A stretch of DNA of 63,915 nucleotides, filler included, from Thermoplasmatota archaeon (GTDB taxonomy: Archaea > Thermoplasmatota > E2 > JACPAO01 > JAHFTW01), in NCBI GenBank assembly GCA_041623215.1. It is 15 parts of 15 records of this genome, joined end to end, with 100 filler letters (N's around TTAATTAATTAA, not from the genome) between each part and the next. Parts side by side here need not be neighbours in the genome. Positions count along the whole stretch, not along the records: positions 44,673 to 48,756 come from JBFJXH010000157.1; 14 more parts are not named here. One strand, 5' to 3'. A program made the position numbers and the translations under genes. Of this stretch, positions 41,099 to 52,936 are shown piece by piece. The number at the start of each line of letters is the position of its first letter. Positions within the stretch are counted from its first letter, which is position 1. Under the pieces are notes generated by a model. The model saw only the letters and a list, made by a program, of their open reading frames with translations, was not told where the DNA came from and searched no databases.

Positions 41099-41099
<1 letters not shown>
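40581..41099 (-). CDS. thpR: RNA 2',3'-cyclic phosphodiesterase (2H family)
   Basis: MRVFVA, HVTLAFLG and FRPHVTLAR (two HxT motifs). Confidence 0.92.
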
Positions 41100-43813
<2,714 letters not shown>

Positions 43814-44672: not shown

Positions 44673-46616
44673 CTCGACGAAGCCCGGCGGCGGGGCATTC
44701 CCGTTATTCGCCGCGGCGACCAGCACTATCAACTTGGCTGGGGCGCGAAACAGAAGGCGCTGTGGGGCACGCTCACAAGCAAGGCGTCAGGCCTGGGCTT
44801 TGACATCGCTAATGATCACGAACGCATCCTGGAGTTCCTCGAGGACACCGGCATTCCCCTACCTGCAGGCGAGGCCCGCCGAACCTTGGCCGGATGCCTG
44901 GAATTGGCCGAGGAGCTACGTTATCCGATCGCCGTCAAGCCGCTTCGGGGCCGTGGCGGCGTCACGCCCCGCGTGGACTCCGACGAGGAACTGGAAGCGG
45001 CCTACGACCGGGCTAAGCAACTCCACGCGTGGGTGGTCCTGCAAGACACGGTGCATGGCGCTCCACACAGGATTCTTGTCGTCGCAGGCAAGGTCGTCGG
45101 AGCCGCACGCAAGTCCACCGGGCATGCGCCAGAGGGAAGCGAGTCCGACGATTGGACGGATGTCACTGACACCTTGAACCCCGCACTTCGCTCGATGGCT
45201 GAACGCGCAGCTTGTCTCGTGGGTCTCGACGTTGTGGGCATCGACATCATGGCCGACGACCTCGAGCAAGACCCGCGTGAGTCGCGTGCCAAGGTTGTCA
45301 GCCTGCACCCCCGTCCCGACCTCACCCCGTTCGCCAAACGTGGCGCGGCCGCGCGAGTCATGGATACGCTGTTTGCCCCCGGTGAGACGGGTCGCATTCC
45401 GCTCCTGGCAGTTACCGGCACGAACGGGAAAACGACGACCATCCGACTCATCAGTCATATTCTCAAGATGGCCGGAGAACAAGTTGGCATGGCCTGCACG
45501 GGCAGTGTGGAAGTAGAAAACGAAGTCATCCTGCGCGGGGATTACTCTGGGCCCGCCGCAGCCCGCGTGGTGGTGCAAGAGCCCTTTGTGACCACCGCCG
45601 TCTGCGAAGTTGCGCGGGGAGGCATTCTGCGGCGCGGCCTCGGCTTCGATGCTGCCGACGCGGCTGCATTCCTCAATGTTGGCAGCGACCATTTGGGTCA
45701 GGGGGGCATTGACACGGTGGAAGACCTCGCGCGCCTCAAAGCGGTGGTCGTGCGCGCCGTGCGACCGGGCGGCACGGTCGTTCTCAACGCCGATGACGAA
45801 CTTGTGTGGGCGCAGCGAAAACACCTCGAAGGTCGGCGCATCTTGCCCTTCACAATGGATGCCGACAACGCCGACGTAGAAGCGCACGTGGCAGCGGCCC
45901 CGGACAACGCGGCAGTCGTATTGCACGACAACGCTCTGTGGCTACACCGCGGCGAGGCGAGGTTCCGCGTCGTTGACATCCGGGACATGCCAATCACCCT
46001 GGACGGTGCCGCGCTGTTCAATGTCGCCAATGCCGCCGCCGCCATCGGTCTAGCCTACGGTTTGGGCGTCAGCGAGGATGATTGCAGGATGGGCCTGCGA
46101 ACCTTCAACCCCAATACCAGTCAATTGCCAGGGCGCATGAATCTCATCACGCTCGGTGGCGTCAAGGTGCTCATTGACTACGGGCACAATGTGCCCGCGC
46201 TCCGGGCGCTGGCGCAAACCTTGCCCCGCCTTGCTGCGGGCCGTAAAATCAATGTGGCGGATGCTTCCGGCAACCGCCGCGACGAAGACCTGCGCGCATT
46301 CGGCGCCCAAATTGCGCAAATGTACGACCGCATCATTGTTTGCGACCCCGACCCCCGGCAGCGGCAACGTGGCGAGACGGCGGATGTCATCCTTGATGGC
46401 ATTCGCTCCACCGGTTTCCCCGAAGACCAACTGACCCGGCAGCTGGACGAAACCAAGGCCCTGCGCATGGCCCTGGCGGAAAGCCGACCGGGCGACCTCG
46501 TTGTCCTGCAAGCCGATGACGTGCAAGCAACCATCGACCTCTGCAACCGACTGCGCGAGCGTTTGGAGGCAGGCGAATCGCCAGCCGACCTCAATCAAGA
46601 ACTGCTTGCTGCGTAG
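44673..46616 (+). CDS. cphA: Cyanophycin synthetase-like protein (degenerate ATP-grasp + intact Mur-ligase domain), 5'-truncated
   Basis: The frame is open from the contig start: EARRRGIP...QLGWG, VKP, HRILVV, GLDVVGIDI, then RIPLLAVTGTNGKTTT, GDYSGP, EVARGGILRRGLGF, NVGSDHLG, PGRMN and DYGHN. Confidence 0.88.
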   Translation, partial: LDEARRRGIPVIRRGDQHYQLGWGAKQKALWGTLTSKASGLGFDIANDHERILEFLEDTGIPLPAGEARRTLAGCLELAEELRYPIAVKPLRGRGGVTPRVDSDEELEAAYDRAKQLHAWVVLQDTVHGAPHRILVVAGKVVGAARKSTGHAPEGSESDDWTDVTDTLNPALRSMAERAACLVGLDVVGIDIMADDLEQDPRESRAKVVSLHPRPDLTPFAKRGAAARVMDTLFAPGETGRIPLLAVTGTNGKTTTIRLISHILKMAGEQVGMACTGSVEVENEVILRGDYSGPAAARVVVQEPFVTTAVCEVARGGILRRGLGFDAADAAAFLNVGSDHLGQGGIDTVEDLARLKAVVVRAVRPGGTVVLNADDELVWAQRKHLEGRRILPFTMDADNADVEAHVAAAPDNAAVVLHDNALWLHRGEARFRVVDIRDMPITLDGAALFNVANAAAAIGLAYGLGVSEDDCRMGLRTFNPNTSQLPGRMNLITLGGVKVLIDYGHNVPALRALAQTLPRLAAGRKINVADASGNRRDEDLRAFGAQIAQMYDRIIVCDPDPRQRQRGETADVILDGIRSTGFPEDQLTRQLDETKALRMALAESRPGDLVVLQADDVQATIDLCNRLRERLEAGESPADLNQELLAA

Positions 46617-46650
46617 CCGCCTTTTTCCACGGCACCTGACTCGCGGCCTT

Positions 46651-47550
46651 GTGCCTTTCACAGTCCTGGCCCACGGCGGCGCCGGCTCTTTCGACCACAA
46701 GGAACACGACGGGCCCCAGGCGGCCGCCGACGCGGGCCTTGCGGCCTTCCAGCGAGGCGCCACACCCCTAGACGCGGCGATTGTGGCCACCCAAGTCTTG
46801 GAGGATGACCCACGCTTCAATGCAGGCACCGGGTCCAATCTCCGCTTCGATGGCCACTCCATCGAGATGGACGCCGCCGTGATGGATGGGATGAGTGGCC
46901 GATTCGGCGCCGTGGCATGCATTGAACGTGTTCGCAACCCGGTGCTGGTGGCACGGGACGTACTGGACACGCCGCACAATCTGCTAGCCGGACGGGGCGC
47001 TACGGCGTTTGCTCGCGCCAGGGGACATGCCGACTGGAATCCAGAAGCGCCCATCAGTCGCGCCAAGTACGAACGGTTGCAGACCATGTTGGCCAGCGGC
47101 GACATCGAACCCGGCTGGTGTGAATGGGACTTGGCGGATTTGCGCCGTGACTGGAATTTCAGCGTGCCATTCGCCCAAGCCGTAGGGCCCAGCGACACCG
47201 TCGGAGCTGTGGCCAGTGACGGCCAACACTTTGCCGCCGCCCTCTCGACGGGTGGCACCATTAGCACCCTGCTTGGCCGCGTGGGCGATGTTCCCTTGCC
47301 GGGTTGTGGCTTGTGGGCCGGCAAACAGGGGGCGGTCTGCGTGACGGGCGACGGCGATCACCTCGCCCGCGCCCGACTGGCGGGCCGAGTCGAATCGTGG
47401 CTCAAGCAAGGGGAGTCCGCTGACACCTGCATCGACAAGGCCATCGCCTTGTTCCCCGAGCACGTGGCTGTTGGGCTCCTGGTTCTCGCGCCGCACGGGC
47501 ACGCTGGTGGTAGCAACCTCCAAATGGCGTGGGCGGTCGCCGAGGCATAG
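46651..47550 (+). CDS. iaaA: Isoaspartyl peptidase / L-asparaginase (Ntn hydrolase, IaaA type)
   Basis: HGGAG, LEDDPRFNAG, EMDAAVMDG, DTVGAVA (Thr nucleophile), STGG, GRVGD and TGDG. Confidence 0.9.
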   Translation: MPFTVLAHGGAGSFDHKEHDGPQAAADAGLAAFQRGATPLDAAIVATQVLEDDPRFNAGTGSNLRFDGHSIEMDAAVMDGMSGRFGAVACIERVRNPVLVARDVLDTPHNLLAGRGATAFARARGHADWNPEAPISRAKYERLQTMLASGDIEPGWCEWDLADLRRDWNFSVPFAQAVGPSDTVGAVASDGQHFAAALSTGGTISTLLGRVGDVPLPGCGLWAGKQGAVCVTGDGDHLARARLAGRVESWLKQGESADTCIDKAIALFPEHVAVGLLVLAPHGHAGGSNLQMAWAVAEA

Positions 47551-47552
47551 CC

Positions 47553-48419
47553 ATGATCAAACCCGAAGTCCTAGCCCCCAAGGGTATGCTGGTTGCCATC
47601 GGCGGCAACGAGGATAAGACGACGGATCTAGAGGTCCTGCGCGCCATTTGCAACCTGCCCGAGGGCGGCACACGCACCGTCGAGGTTCTGCCCATCGCAA
47701 GCCGCATCCCGGAGGAGGCCGGCGGCCAATATGTCGAACCCTTCCAAACCATTGGCGCCAAGACCGTGAACATCATGGACATTCGAACCCGCGCCGAAGC
47801 AGACTCGGATGAATTGGTGCAACGAATCATTGACGCGGATGTGGTCTTCTTCACGGGTGGCGACCAGCTGCGCATCACCAACTTGCTAGGGGGCAGCCGT
47901 GTCCTGGAAACGCTGAAGGGTCACTTCCAGCGCGGCGGGGTCATTGCCGGCACCAGCGCCGGAGCTGCCGCCATGAGCCAAGCCATGATTTACCAGGGTC
48001 GGGCCGGCAACGCCCTTCGCAAAGGCAACGTGCAGATGACGCCTGGCTTGGGTTTGATTCGCAATACGGTCGTGGATTCACACTTCACGCAGCGTGGCCG
48101 CTTCAGCCGACTTCTCGAAGTGGTCATTGGTAACCCGGGCGTGATTGGTCTGGGATTGGATGAAGACTCGGGAGTTGTCGTGCGCGAGGGGCGCGTGGCC
48201 GAAGCGATTGGCAGTGGCGTTGTCGTGGTCATTGATGGCCGCGACATGGATTACTCGAATGTGACGGACGTGGCCATGGGGACGGCCATCGCCGAAGAGG
48301 GCGTTCGCGTCCACACGCTGACCACGGGGCACGCGTTCGACTTGGAAGACCGCCGCTACCTTCGCCCGGTGGTTTCGCTCCGCGAAGAAGACCATGAGGA
48401 CGAAACCTTAGCCGAATAG
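47553..48419 (+). CDS. cphB: Cyanophycinase
   Basis: IGGNEDK, FTGGDQLR, GTSAGA (Ser), DSHF (His), RGRFSRL and GLDED (Glu). Confidence 0.93.
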   Translation: MIKPEVLAPKGMLVAIGGNEDKTTDLEVLRAICNLPEGGTRTVEVLPIASRIPEEAGGQYVEPFQTIGAKTVNIMDIRTRAEADSDELVQRIIDADVVFFTGGDQLRITNLLGGSRVLETLKGHFQRGGVIAGTSAGAAAMSQAMIYQGRAGNALRKGNVQMTPGLGLIRNTVVDSHFTQRGRFSRLLEVVIGNPGVIGLGLDEDSGVVVREGRVAEAIGSGVVVVIDGRDMDYSNVTDVAMGTAIAEEGVRVHTLTTGHAFDLEDRRYLRPVVSLREEDHEDETLAE

Positions 48420-48621
48420 GAGCGCCCAGTGGCGGAAGGGACGGGGGCGTCGAGTCGGGGCGCCGTGCGCCAGAGACGTGGGGTCGGTAAGGCCGACGCG
48501 GGTGGGTCGGTATGGTTGAATGCACCACCGTTCCTGCGAGCCTGTGGCGGCGCCGGCTGACGACAGGCAATCGCGGCATCGGGAAACCGAAGCAACCGCG
48601 CATGGCCCGCCAGACGGTGGC

Positions 48622-48756
48622 ATGGACCTTGCCGCGGTGCGGCGGCTCGCGCCATGGGCCATTGGGTTCAGCCTTATCGTGCTGCTGGCCATCCTTATCT
48701 GGACGCAGGTCCGCGGAGGCCAAGACTTGCGCAGTTCCTTCGCGGCTCTCGATGCC
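48622..48756 (+). CDS. Membrane protein N-terminus (possibly flippase-like / lysylphosphatidylglycerol synthase TM family), truncated
   Basis: MDLAAVRRLAPWAIGFSLIVLLAILIW...; only 45 codons are visible. Confidence 0.35.
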
Positions 48757-52562: not shown

Positions 52563-52936
52563 GTGGACCTGTCCGATTACGAGACGCCCATTACCGTGCG
52601 CGAGGCAACGCCCGATGACCACGCCGCCATTATCGCGTTGCAACGGCGTTGCTTCCCGGGCATGAAGACGTGGACCTTGGAGCAGTTGGCCGAGCACCAC
52701 CGCCTGTTTCCCCGAGGGCAGTTCGTAGTTGAGGTCGAGGGGGAGATTGCTGGCTCGTGCAGCAGCTTGCTGTTGGATTTCGACGACCACCCGGACTACC
52801 ACACCTTCGACCAGATTACTGGCGACGGTAGCCTGTCCACGCACGACCCCGATGGCCCTGACCTGTACGGCATCGAGGTCATGGTGGACCCCGACCAACG
52901 CGGCATGCGGCTAGGAGAACGGCTCTACCAGGCACG
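52563..52936 (+). CDS. GNAT acetyltransferase domain (type often fused to a carbon-nitrogen hydrolase), 3'-truncated
   Basis: FPRGQFVVE, THDPDGPDLYGIEVMVDPDQRGMRLG. Confidence 0.82.

Follow-up and report, generated by a model that had tools for sequence, protein, structure and literature searches.

A four-gene unit in a Thermoplasmatota archaeon is likely to make and recycle cyanophycin and contains a putative arginine-ligating partner of the synthetase

The closest described counterparts of the genes reported here are mostly found in bacteria. The CphA1 enzymes of Synechocystis UTEX2470 (PDB 7LG5) and Trichodesmium erythraeum (PDB 7WAC) consist of three domains with all named residues of the N, G and M sites, and cphA1 is clustered with cphB and iaaA in 49 of 153 bacterial genomes having all three genes (PMC10206079). 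Cyanobacteria also possess CphA2, a CphA1 paralogue in which a single catalytic domain, G, is kept beside a non-catalytic N domain and the M domain is truncated and inactive (PMC10273328). Adjacent cphA paralogues with complementary losses have been reported from Betaproteobacteria and other bacteria (PMC5178258, PMC10687191) and were present at 13 of 79 bacterial loci. The first member of such a tandem pair has mostly lost its M site but not its N motif, and ANLSTGG, EVN and M are all retained in the second. These paralogues go by the names CphA/CphA' and CphA3. Two surveys of the pathway covered bacteria only (PMC10206079, PMC9974463), and a third found CphA to be specific to bacteria (PMC11915815). 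For archaea, cyanophycin metabolism has been discussed as degradation only, with a cyanophycinase of Culexarchaeia predicted from MAGs (PMC9723716).

The DNA analysed here (the window, 63,915 nucleotides) is composed of 15 unrelated contigs of a Thermoplasmatota archaeon (GCA_041623215.1), joined end to end. The cyanophycin genes lie on contig C157 (window positions 44673-48756). As described in an earlier note on this DNA, three co-oriented open reading frames are separated by gaps of 34 and 2 nt. They are located on the plus strand at 44673-46616 (open at the 5' end), 46651-47550 and 47553-48419. However, the first of them, then taken for a CphA-like synthetase, proved to be the 3' 647 codons of a degenerate second copy of about 788 codons (copy B), whose first 141 codons lie on the minus strand of contig C76. 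An intact synthetase gene encoding 886 aa (copy A) is located upstream at C76 561-3221 (minus strand), outside the window. Thus, the cluster comprises four genes and not the three originally listed. An FAD/4Fe-4S oxidoreductase gene (C76 3345-5519) and dnaJ (C76 5604-6737), both also on the minus strand of C76, are co-oriented with the two cphA copies. C157 and the reverse complement of C76 overlap exactly over 141 nt (44673-44813, plus strand), a length shared by 108 of the 124 end overlaps among contigs of the bin. The join is bridged by an independently assembled contig of 3164 nt from run X1, covering C76 1-2493 and C157 1-812. Four DNA sequencing runs were found, all belonging to a single study, and the best of them may represent the source sample; no RNA run was listed. 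The 5' end of a lysylphosphatidylglycerol-synthase-like membrane gene (48520-48756, plus strand) follows cphB and continues into contig C51 via a 38-nt overlap. This gene is a neighbour outside the pathway; C51 carries archaeal DUF2240 and cytochrome oxidase genes.

The cyanophycin unit is almost certainly archaeal (Thermoplasmatota). The tetranucleotide profile of C157 fell at the 16th percentile of 371 pieces of its own genome, and all 11 GC-matched bacterial loci lay above the 95th. Its distance from the rpoB contig, a comparison suggested in the earlier note, corresponded to the 34th percentile of 370. The overlap-linked DnaJ had Thermoplasmatota or Thermoplasmata as its first six organism-named matches. 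The same cluster, which was also to be sought on long archaeal contigs, was found beside archaeal genes on contigs of 60-666 kb from relatives; on contig C15 of genome G007 the A+B pair sits between archaeal ether-lipid genes and herA-nurA-rad50-mre11. Composition, the linked DnaJ and the position of the relatives' clusters beside archaeal-only genes therefore bear out the earlier archaeal assignment. A bacterial contig placed in the wrong bin is extremely improbable. Such an error might be suspected from the shortness of the contig, the 223 contigs of the bin and an identity of approximately 50-52% to the nearest named bacterial CphA proteins, but the matching composition, a bin contamination of 0.04%, the DnaJ linkage and the long contigs of relatives argue against it, and contig C15 of G007 already contradicts it. 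Recent transfer from a bacterium was rejected as well, with CAI and GC3 of the four genes between the 19th and 87th percentiles of 1194 genes.

Copy A scored 1056.8 bits on the CphA1 model TIGR02068 (cut-off 850) and contains N (PF18921), G (ATP-grasp) and M (Mur) domains, like the solved bacterial enzymes. Residues were numbered according to TeCphA1 by alignment, and their catalytic roles are those given in PMC9427784 and PMC9262961. The protein of this genome has the Cx19HxxEH motif in the N site, H267, R309, R323, N394, S396 and R458 in the G site, and K499, T500, T522, E558, D585/H586, R731 and H748 in the M site. All 25 A-type proteins contain C59/H79/E82/H83, H267, R309, R323, N394, S396, E450/N452, G456 and R458. 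In their M sites K499, T500, T522, E558 and R731 are likewise found in 25 of 25, D585 and H748 in 24 each and H586 in 23. As a CphA1, copy A would polymerise Asp and Arg with ATP. Its M domain is under purifying selection, and within genera the M-core dN of A was lower than that of B in three of five pairs, equal in one and higher in one. The lid of the M domain carries changes specific to A. The sequence G-N-R-R-D is altered to G-N-R-L-D in 22 of 25 A proteins; Arg is found in 23 of 26 B proteins and 49 of 51 other bacterial proteins, and Met occupies the position in 4 of 22 single-copy proteins. Further A-specific changes were observed at P0001 positions 592, 836 and 855, and the stem of A in the M-domain tree is long (0.33 versus 0.10 for B). 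The Tyr-to-Phe exchange in the DYxHN motif of A might have pointed to an inactive M site, but this reading was rejected, Phe being found in 13 of 51 other bacterial proteins.

Copy B shows the opposite pattern. The window protein has an ATP-grasp domain lacking His267, Asn394, Glu450/Asn452, Gly456 and Arg458 (H267 to Gly, E450 to Ser, N452 to His, G456 to Asp, R458 to Thr), the whole G-omega module is deleted, and an intact M domain (Mur ligase, arginine-adding) follows. His267 and Asn394 occur in none of the 26 B-type homologues. The primer-making Cx19HxxEH motif is absent from the N-terminal part encoded on C76 and from all 27 B-type proteins; according to PMC9262961, it occurs in 83% of CphA1 and is hence optional. 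Without two of its three active sites, copy B could not extend a backbone. The M-site residues N497, K499, T500, T522, E558, D585, H586, F692, R731 and H748 are present in 26 of 26 B-type proteins, and the window protein has all the named ones. Retention was scored at positions at least 90% conserved among 103 control proteins and amounted to 0.95 (M core), 0.98 (M lid) and 0.05 (G-omega) for B, compared to 0.85, 0.81 and 0.98 for A. A broken pseudogene was rejected, since no stop codon occurred in the ten genomes translated and dN/dS was well below 1; purifying selection extends even to the dead G remnant (dN/dS approximately 0.06-0.15 in five of five within-genus pairs). Compared to CphA1 of bacteria, the locus differs in its archaeal host, the A-specific lid changes and an apparently translationally coupled second copy with dead N and G sites. 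CphA2 is, like B, a paralogue with one catalytic domain, but its mirror image. The tandem bacterial pairs branch far from the archaeal pair, in separate clades, and have lost other motifs. The new part is the putative arginine-ligase-only partner copy, and the two-gene arrangements of bacteria are unrelated.

The remaining two genes resemble known recycling enzymes. CphB scored 236.8 bits on TIGR02069 (cut-off 126.6) and contains the GGDQ and DxHFxxRxR motifs, the latter as D-x-H-F-x-x-R-G-R. Its triad Ser135-His177-Glu204, previously called intact, is indeed unchanged in all 10 archaeal homologues that were aligned. The alignment to a solved cyanophycinase begins at residue 9, which leaves no room for a signal peptide. 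By family function CphB would cut the polymer to beta-Asp-Arg. The iaaA product, previously classed as an Ntn isoaspartyl peptidase, scored 206 bits on PF01112, and the Thr183 nucleophile and the substrate residues Arg210/Asp213, T232 and G233 are invariant in 8 of 8 proteins. Isoaspartyl peptidase/L-asparaginases were its best solved-structure matches; with 114.7 bits it stays below the cut-off of the curated beta-aspartyl-peptidase model NF007589 (567 bits), so that its subfamily is assigned from context and motifs. It is predicted from family function to split beta-Asp-Arg into Asp and Arg. The genome also encodes argininosuccinate synthase, an arginase-family protein and an ammonium transporter. 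Arginine deiminase was not found in the 88%-complete bin, nor was rhodopsin, for which the control query matched nowhere either.

The gene cphA was found in 39 of 401 genomes of the phylum. Therefore, the archaeal pathway is not unique to this genome, and archaeal cyanophycin genes are already labelled in NCBI MAG annotations. Though the genes are common in the phylum, our literature search found no characterised archaeal example, in agreement with the earlier note. A first scan of a contig collection gave no match, a second scan (1/64 parts of the collection) gave the 79 loci, none titled archaeal, and matches in the ESM Atlas were bacterial cyanophycin synthetase clusters only. Within the order, 16 of 38 genomes contain cphA and the very same 16 contain cphB, which is thus never found without cphA (16/16). 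The A+B pair is present in 12 of them, several times next to archaeal lipid, HerA-NurA or Spt5 genes. Copy B never occurs without A in these 12 genomes or in genome G116, and adjacency was seen in 11 of the 12. Four relatives in genus g5 lack B and carry a single intact cphA. The origin of B differs between trees: the M domain places it as sister to A (99/97), the N+G or G regions nearer to single-copy proteins (100/100 for the G006 copy; 80/85). Halophilic Proteobacteria are sister to the archaeal proteins in two trees (support 91; 86/97), nested beside A in another (82) and part of a polytomy in three more; archaeal monophyly was not rejected (p-AU 0.389).

Taken together, the unit cphA-A/cphA-B/iaaA/cphB is likely to make and recycle the nitrogen store cyanophycin, and we consider it very probable that a cyanophycin-type polymer is made. 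The earlier suggestion that the archaeon may make and recycle cyanophycin thus stands in that a full make-and-break gene set is present; it does not stand for the gene then named as the synthetase, which lacks the N and G sites. That B is the Arg-ligating subunit bound to A appears somewhat more probable than the contrary. A and B would be translated together and pair via the G-core dimer face, A cutting primers and extending the poly-Asp backbone and B adding arginine as its partner; CphB would then cut the polymer to beta-Asp-Arg and IaaA free Asp and Arg. In this genome the stop codon of A overlaps the start codon of B (TTGA), and at 9 of 9 A/B junctions examined the overlap is preceded by GGAGG. 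According to PMC9262961, SuCphA1 heterodimers engineered to have their sites on different chains show activity; they split N from G+M, not G from M. A complex prediction for the two G domains of G001 scored 0.39 against 0.01 for the best control and lends weak support; the runs shared at least 89% of their contacts, and the partner pLDDT was 86 or higher. Of 157 solved pairs 116 attained this mark, as did 2 of 215 mismatched pairs, but only 18 of the 157 and both mismatches did so at 0.60 or below. The result may reflect memorisation by the model, as a similar homodimer has already been solved. At the position of the trans-acting Glu215, all 26 B and all 22 single-copy proteins have an acidic residue, compared to 6 of 25 A and just 3 of 30 halophilic-proteobacterial proteins. 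Since kin are not independent, its loss in A may represent one or two events, and in SuCphA1 the E215A variant retains about half the activity. The case for the mixed enzyme is weakened by the single intact cphA without B in g5, by the disagreement of the B-origin trees and by this loss of force of the Glu215 argument. An obligate two-subunit synthetase, in which B would complete the aspartate site of A across the dimer and the Arg sites would have diverged, with a second side-chain amino acid as a variant, is unlikely.

The M domain of A keeps its catalytic residues in most members and is under purifying selection; A may therefore need no partner, and B could be dispensable. A would then be a complete CphA1, and B a separate homo-oligomeric side-chain ligase boosting the arginine loading of granules without any mixed complex. 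The catalytic residues kept in most A members and the relatives that manage with a single copy speak for this, as do proteins of approximately 560-650 aa with an N stub and an M domain that adjoin cphA1 at 10 of the 79 bacterial loci (Xanthomonadales, Myxococcota, Actinomycetota). These M-only CphA relatives, of which we found no description in the literature, indicate that M-only helpers may not need contact with a G core. However, they lack the whole G domain and form a separate clade, whereas B retains remnants of the G core and G lid and falls within the Thermoplasmatota/halophile clade. The stop-start overlap and the selected G-core remnant with its acid at the Glu215 position count against self-sufficiency, although a homodimer would keep the interface too; we regard it as unlikely, if less so than any other alternative. 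The lid changes and long stem of A would fit a divergence in which B keeps the ancestral Arg site and A adds Lys, ornithine or citrulline to a modified polymer; all three can be taken by CphA enzymes (PMC8050183). This is rather unlikely: the literature passages compared do not name the Arg-binding residues of the M lid, single-copy proteins also vary at the lid position, and CphB resembles an ordinary cyanophycinase.

B could also be a non-catalytic scaffold or regulator that senses ATP or polymer and sets synthetase activity or granule form. Its two dead sites and the selection on its N and G remnants agree with such a role, which is nevertheless improbable, as the invariance of every named M-site residue goes beyond the expected need of binding alone. 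Scavenging of outside cyanophycin by cphB and iaaA with vestigial synthesis, for which the degenerate window copy and the Culexarchaeia, reported to have a cyanophycinase but no synthesis (PMC9723716), could be quoted, is very improbable in view of the intact copy A, the strict occurrence of cphB with cphA and the N-terminus of CphB.

Archaea would gain a dedicated store of nitrogen from an intact unit for synthesis and recycling that is kept vertically in approximately a tenth of the Thermoplasmatota sampled. The putative arginine-ligase-only subunit would be a natural separation-of-function enzyme, which would allow direct study of the poorly resolved Arg-ligation step and of the cross-chain hand-over in CphA, and it might tune polymer composition. 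The copy in genome G006 has eroded motifs and still contains G-omega; it may be a preserved intermediate in a three-site enzyme dividing its labour.

The window consists of 15 contigs connected by linkers. Its cyanophycin genes are located on contig C157 of the archaeal genome (window 44673-48756), where the three co-oriented open reading frames with spacings of 34 and 2 nt described in the earlier note were indeed present. The three genes do not form the complete set, since an intact upstream cphA (copy A) on contig C76 makes four. The first 141 nt of C157 match the reverse-complemented end of C76 exactly; end overlaps of 141 nt account for 108 of 124 in this bin. A 3164-nt contig of the sequencing run X1 spans C76 1-2493 and C157 1-812, and a 4469-nt X1 contig connects dnaJ with the 5' end of the upstream gene on C76. 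Since X1 is possibly the source sample, this bridging tests the assembly and not the habitat. C76 carries dnaJ, a FAD/4Fe-4S oxidoreductase gene, the full 886-aa copy A and the first 141 codons of a degenerate second cphA (copy B). The window's first open reading frame, open at the edge of C157, contributes 647 codons of copy B, which amounts to ~788 aa when both parts are combined. The joined unit reads A-B-iaaA-cphB. A search of the whole bin revealed no other match to cphA, cphB or iaaA.

Downstream, a lysylphosphatidylglycerol-synthase-like gene (window 48520-48756 and L002:10781-11740) contains one in-frame TGA in contig C51, which separates two Pfam-matching halves and is either an assembly error or a pseudogene. 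Read by eye, C156 carries a pyruvate phosphate dikinase-like gene (window 41099-43813) and C158 the start of a GNAT-like open reading frame (window 52563-52936); neither has a link to the cluster here. A GNAT-nitrilase fusion was found near the cyanophycin cluster of the relative G003.

Completeness of the bin is 88.41% and contamination 0.04%. An archaeal rpoB on C153 passes its cut-off, and no bacterial rpoB does so. Compared with 371 pieces of 4 kb from the same genome, C157 ranks at the 16th percentile of tetranucleotide distance, while the GC-matched bacterial loci fell past the 95th in 11/11 cases. In the tetranucleotide comparison with the rpoB contig, proposed in the earlier note, C157 ranked at the 34th percentile (370 pieces), C76 at the 12th and C51 at the 93rd. 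Codon use of the cyanophycin genes is ordinary for this genome. Among the best 120 DnaJ matches 12 were organism-named, 11 of them archaeal and one "bacterium", and the first six of these named matches belong to Thermoplasmatota/Thermoplasmata. The closest named matches of copy A (70%) are "Thermoplasmatota archaeon", followed by Halomonadaceae at ~50-52%. Neighbouring genes were analyzed by a Pfam scan of 116 open reading frames from 12 of 22 gene-called loci. On a 59.7-kb contig of G007 an A-B pair is flanked by herA-nurA-rad50-mre11 and by geranylgeranyl reductase, UbiA, PcrB and Fe-ADH_2 genes, which we take to be an archaeal ether-lipid set. The copies of G001 lie near Spt5, SecE and prefoldin genes, the single copy of G022 near STT3, RIO1 and a KRR1-type KH protein, and C51 of the own genome carries DUF2240. 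Composition, DnaJ matches and the flanking genes of relatives agree that the contig belongs with the archaeal genome. The cyanophycin unit is real and archaeal.

The window CphB scored 236.8 bits on TIGR02069 (cut-off 126.6) and is alignable to solved cyanophycinases. Its triad, reported as intact, was confirmed, with Ser135, His177 and Glu204 kept in 10/10 aligned archaeal homologues. The family search identified the middle gene product as an Asparaginase_2 Ntn hydrolase. The Thr nucleophile and substrate residues are kept in 8/8 aligned proteins, although the score lies below the curated IaaA cut-off.

Copy A scored 1056.8 bits on TIGR02068 (cut-off 850) and the partial copy B in the window 584 bits. 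Copy B aligns with the Synechocystis enzyme SuCphA1 as two pieces with ~70 residues absent between them. Residue roles were taken from the available text of PMC9427784 and PMC9262961 and transferred through alignment to TeCphA1. Database proteins were grouped by rank, motif and name into 25 A, 26 B and 22 single-copy archaeal-clade proteins; as most of these rows lack an organism name, they are taken as archaeal on the basis of clustering. The first 30 halophile-type matches and 51 other bacterial proteins served for comparison, and P0144, the G006 copy, was scored separately from the 26 B proteins. All named residues of the primer-making N and aspartate-adding G domains are kept by A (25/25). 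In B-type proteins the N motif is missing (0/27), as are H267 and N394 (0/26) and G-omega; the ten residues named for the arginine-adding M site are present in 26/26. The synthetase of the window is a CphA relative with an M site which has lost the other sites.

B retained 0.95 (M core) and 0.98 (M lid) of the control-conserved positions, and A 0.85 and 0.81. The Arg of the lid motif GNRRD is replaced by Leu in 22/25 A proteins. M-core dN was lower for A than for B in 3/5 within-genus pairs and higher in 3/3 cross-genus pairs. The G remnant of B showed dN/dS of ~0.06-0.15, ratios which are rough because dS is close to saturation. The M catalytic residues of A are mostly intact (23-25 of 25), which together with the lower within-genus dN counts against a clean division of labour.

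In one A subclade, to which G035 belongs (P0021-P0024, P0032; L033:11845-14484), M-site motifs are eroded, with changes around D585/H586, H748 and the lid; by sequence, its members are the strongest candidates for an obligate division between A and B. G006:C8:19200-21750 (L031:11201-13750) encodes an intermediate copy B without N motif, with eroded G motifs (H267 changed to Gln and N394 to Ser), and with G-omega retained. P0148, P0150 and P0151, full-length members of the archaeal CphA clade in which the N-site motif alone is missing, are predicted to be primer-dependent.

In TeCphA1, Glu215 acts from the partner chain. An acidic residue occupies this position in 26/26 B, 22/22 single-copy, 6/25 A, 3/30 halophile-type and 38/51 other bacterial proteins, a pattern that is compatible with a mixed dimer and does not demand one. 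Co-folding of the two G domains of G001 gave 0.39 versus 0.01 for the best control, with contact agreement of at least 89% and partner pLDDT of at least 86; a dimer of this kind has already been solved. The co-folding mark was reached by 116/157 solved and 2/215 mismatched pairs, yet at ≤0.60 by only 18 of the 157 solved pairs and by both mismatched ones. The model lends weak support to a predicted A-B G-domain complex. Most likely, A and B would be co-produced and assemble via the G-core face, with A most likely responsible for priming and backbone extension. B would add Arg, perhaps jointly with the M site of A, and CphB and IaaA would release Asp and Arg. As judged from sequence, such a two-subunit mechanism is plausible. 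The own genome encodes argininosuccinate synthase, an arginase-family gene and an ammonium transporter. In L033:1-9489 (G035:C31) the cyanophycin genes are convergent with a LysW-type lysine/arginine biosynthesis cluster; other relatives carry arginase, aminotransferase, amino-acid permease or glycine-cleavage genes nearby.

The TIGR02068 cut-off was passed by 15/61 relatives searched, all within the order. M-domain matches occurred in 16 of its 38 genomes and cphB in the same 16; with bin completeness of 65-94% in the order, a missing match cannot be read as absence. Both copies were found in 12 of the 16, including the G006 intermediate and G015, whose B is interrupted by a contig end. Four genomes (genus g5) have one intact copy. 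The order A-B-iaaA-cphB occurs in G000 (the own genome) and G003, and iaaA-cphB-A-B in G007, G017 and G035. A immediately precedes B in 11/12, the G001 copies sitting on separate contigs, and in 9/9 junctions examined the A stop overlaps the B start and is preceded by GGAGG. Phylum-wide, 39/401 sampled genomes match cphA, and one A+B pair (G116) lies outside the class. In G006:C8 iaaA-cphB lies ~36 kb from copy B on the same contig. G022, G024 and G028 have a second cphB at another site of the genome, and G024 and G131 a second iaaA.

In every CphA tree (25-78 selected rows each) Thermoplasmatota and halophilic Proteobacteria formed one strongly supported clade, whose internal branching order differs between trees. 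One tree nested halophilic-proteobacterial CphA1 (Halomonadaceae, alphaproteobacterial, e.g., P0040, P0065, P0114) among the Thermoplasmatota enzymes; a transfer of cphA from archaea to halophilic Proteobacteria is possible. On G-remnant columns the B proteins are monophyletic, and the G006 copy diverges first among them (support 100/99). The M-domain tree unites A and B (99/97), whereas the N and G parts of B lean toward single-copy proteins, and this disagreement may reflect recombination or a more complex history.

CphA was specific to bacteria within the sample of PMC11915815, as far as its available text goes; PMC10206079 and PMC9974463 are, in the parts available, surveys of bacterial genomes only. 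The accessible part of PMC9723716 describes an archaeal cyanophycinase and nothing more of the pathway. CphA2 is defined in PMC10273328, alternative amino acids are the subject of PMC8050183, and tandem bacterial cphA copies are mentioned and not dissected in PMC5178258 and PMC10687191, each in the text available. A literature search covering main texts of non-subscription papers found neither archaeal cyanophycin synthesis, in line with the earlier note, nor an M-only CphA subunit. The pathway is known and its domain, Archaea, unexpected; the putative two-subunit A+B variant is the new part.

Two-gene cphA arrangements were found in 23/79 bacterial loci; 13 of these are of the betaproteobacterial type, and the other 10 include an N-stub + M protein. 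Both are unrelated to copy B in the trees. N-stub + M proteins (~560-650 aa) combine a CphA N-like stub with an M domain, the G domain being gone, and 12 of them form one clade. The literature search yielded no description of this family, which is worth a separate study. In the 10/79 loci where its genes lie beside a cphA-like gene, they are downstream on the same strand in L078, L090, L091, L092 and L110, and on the opposite strand in L088, L096, L114, L120 and L121.
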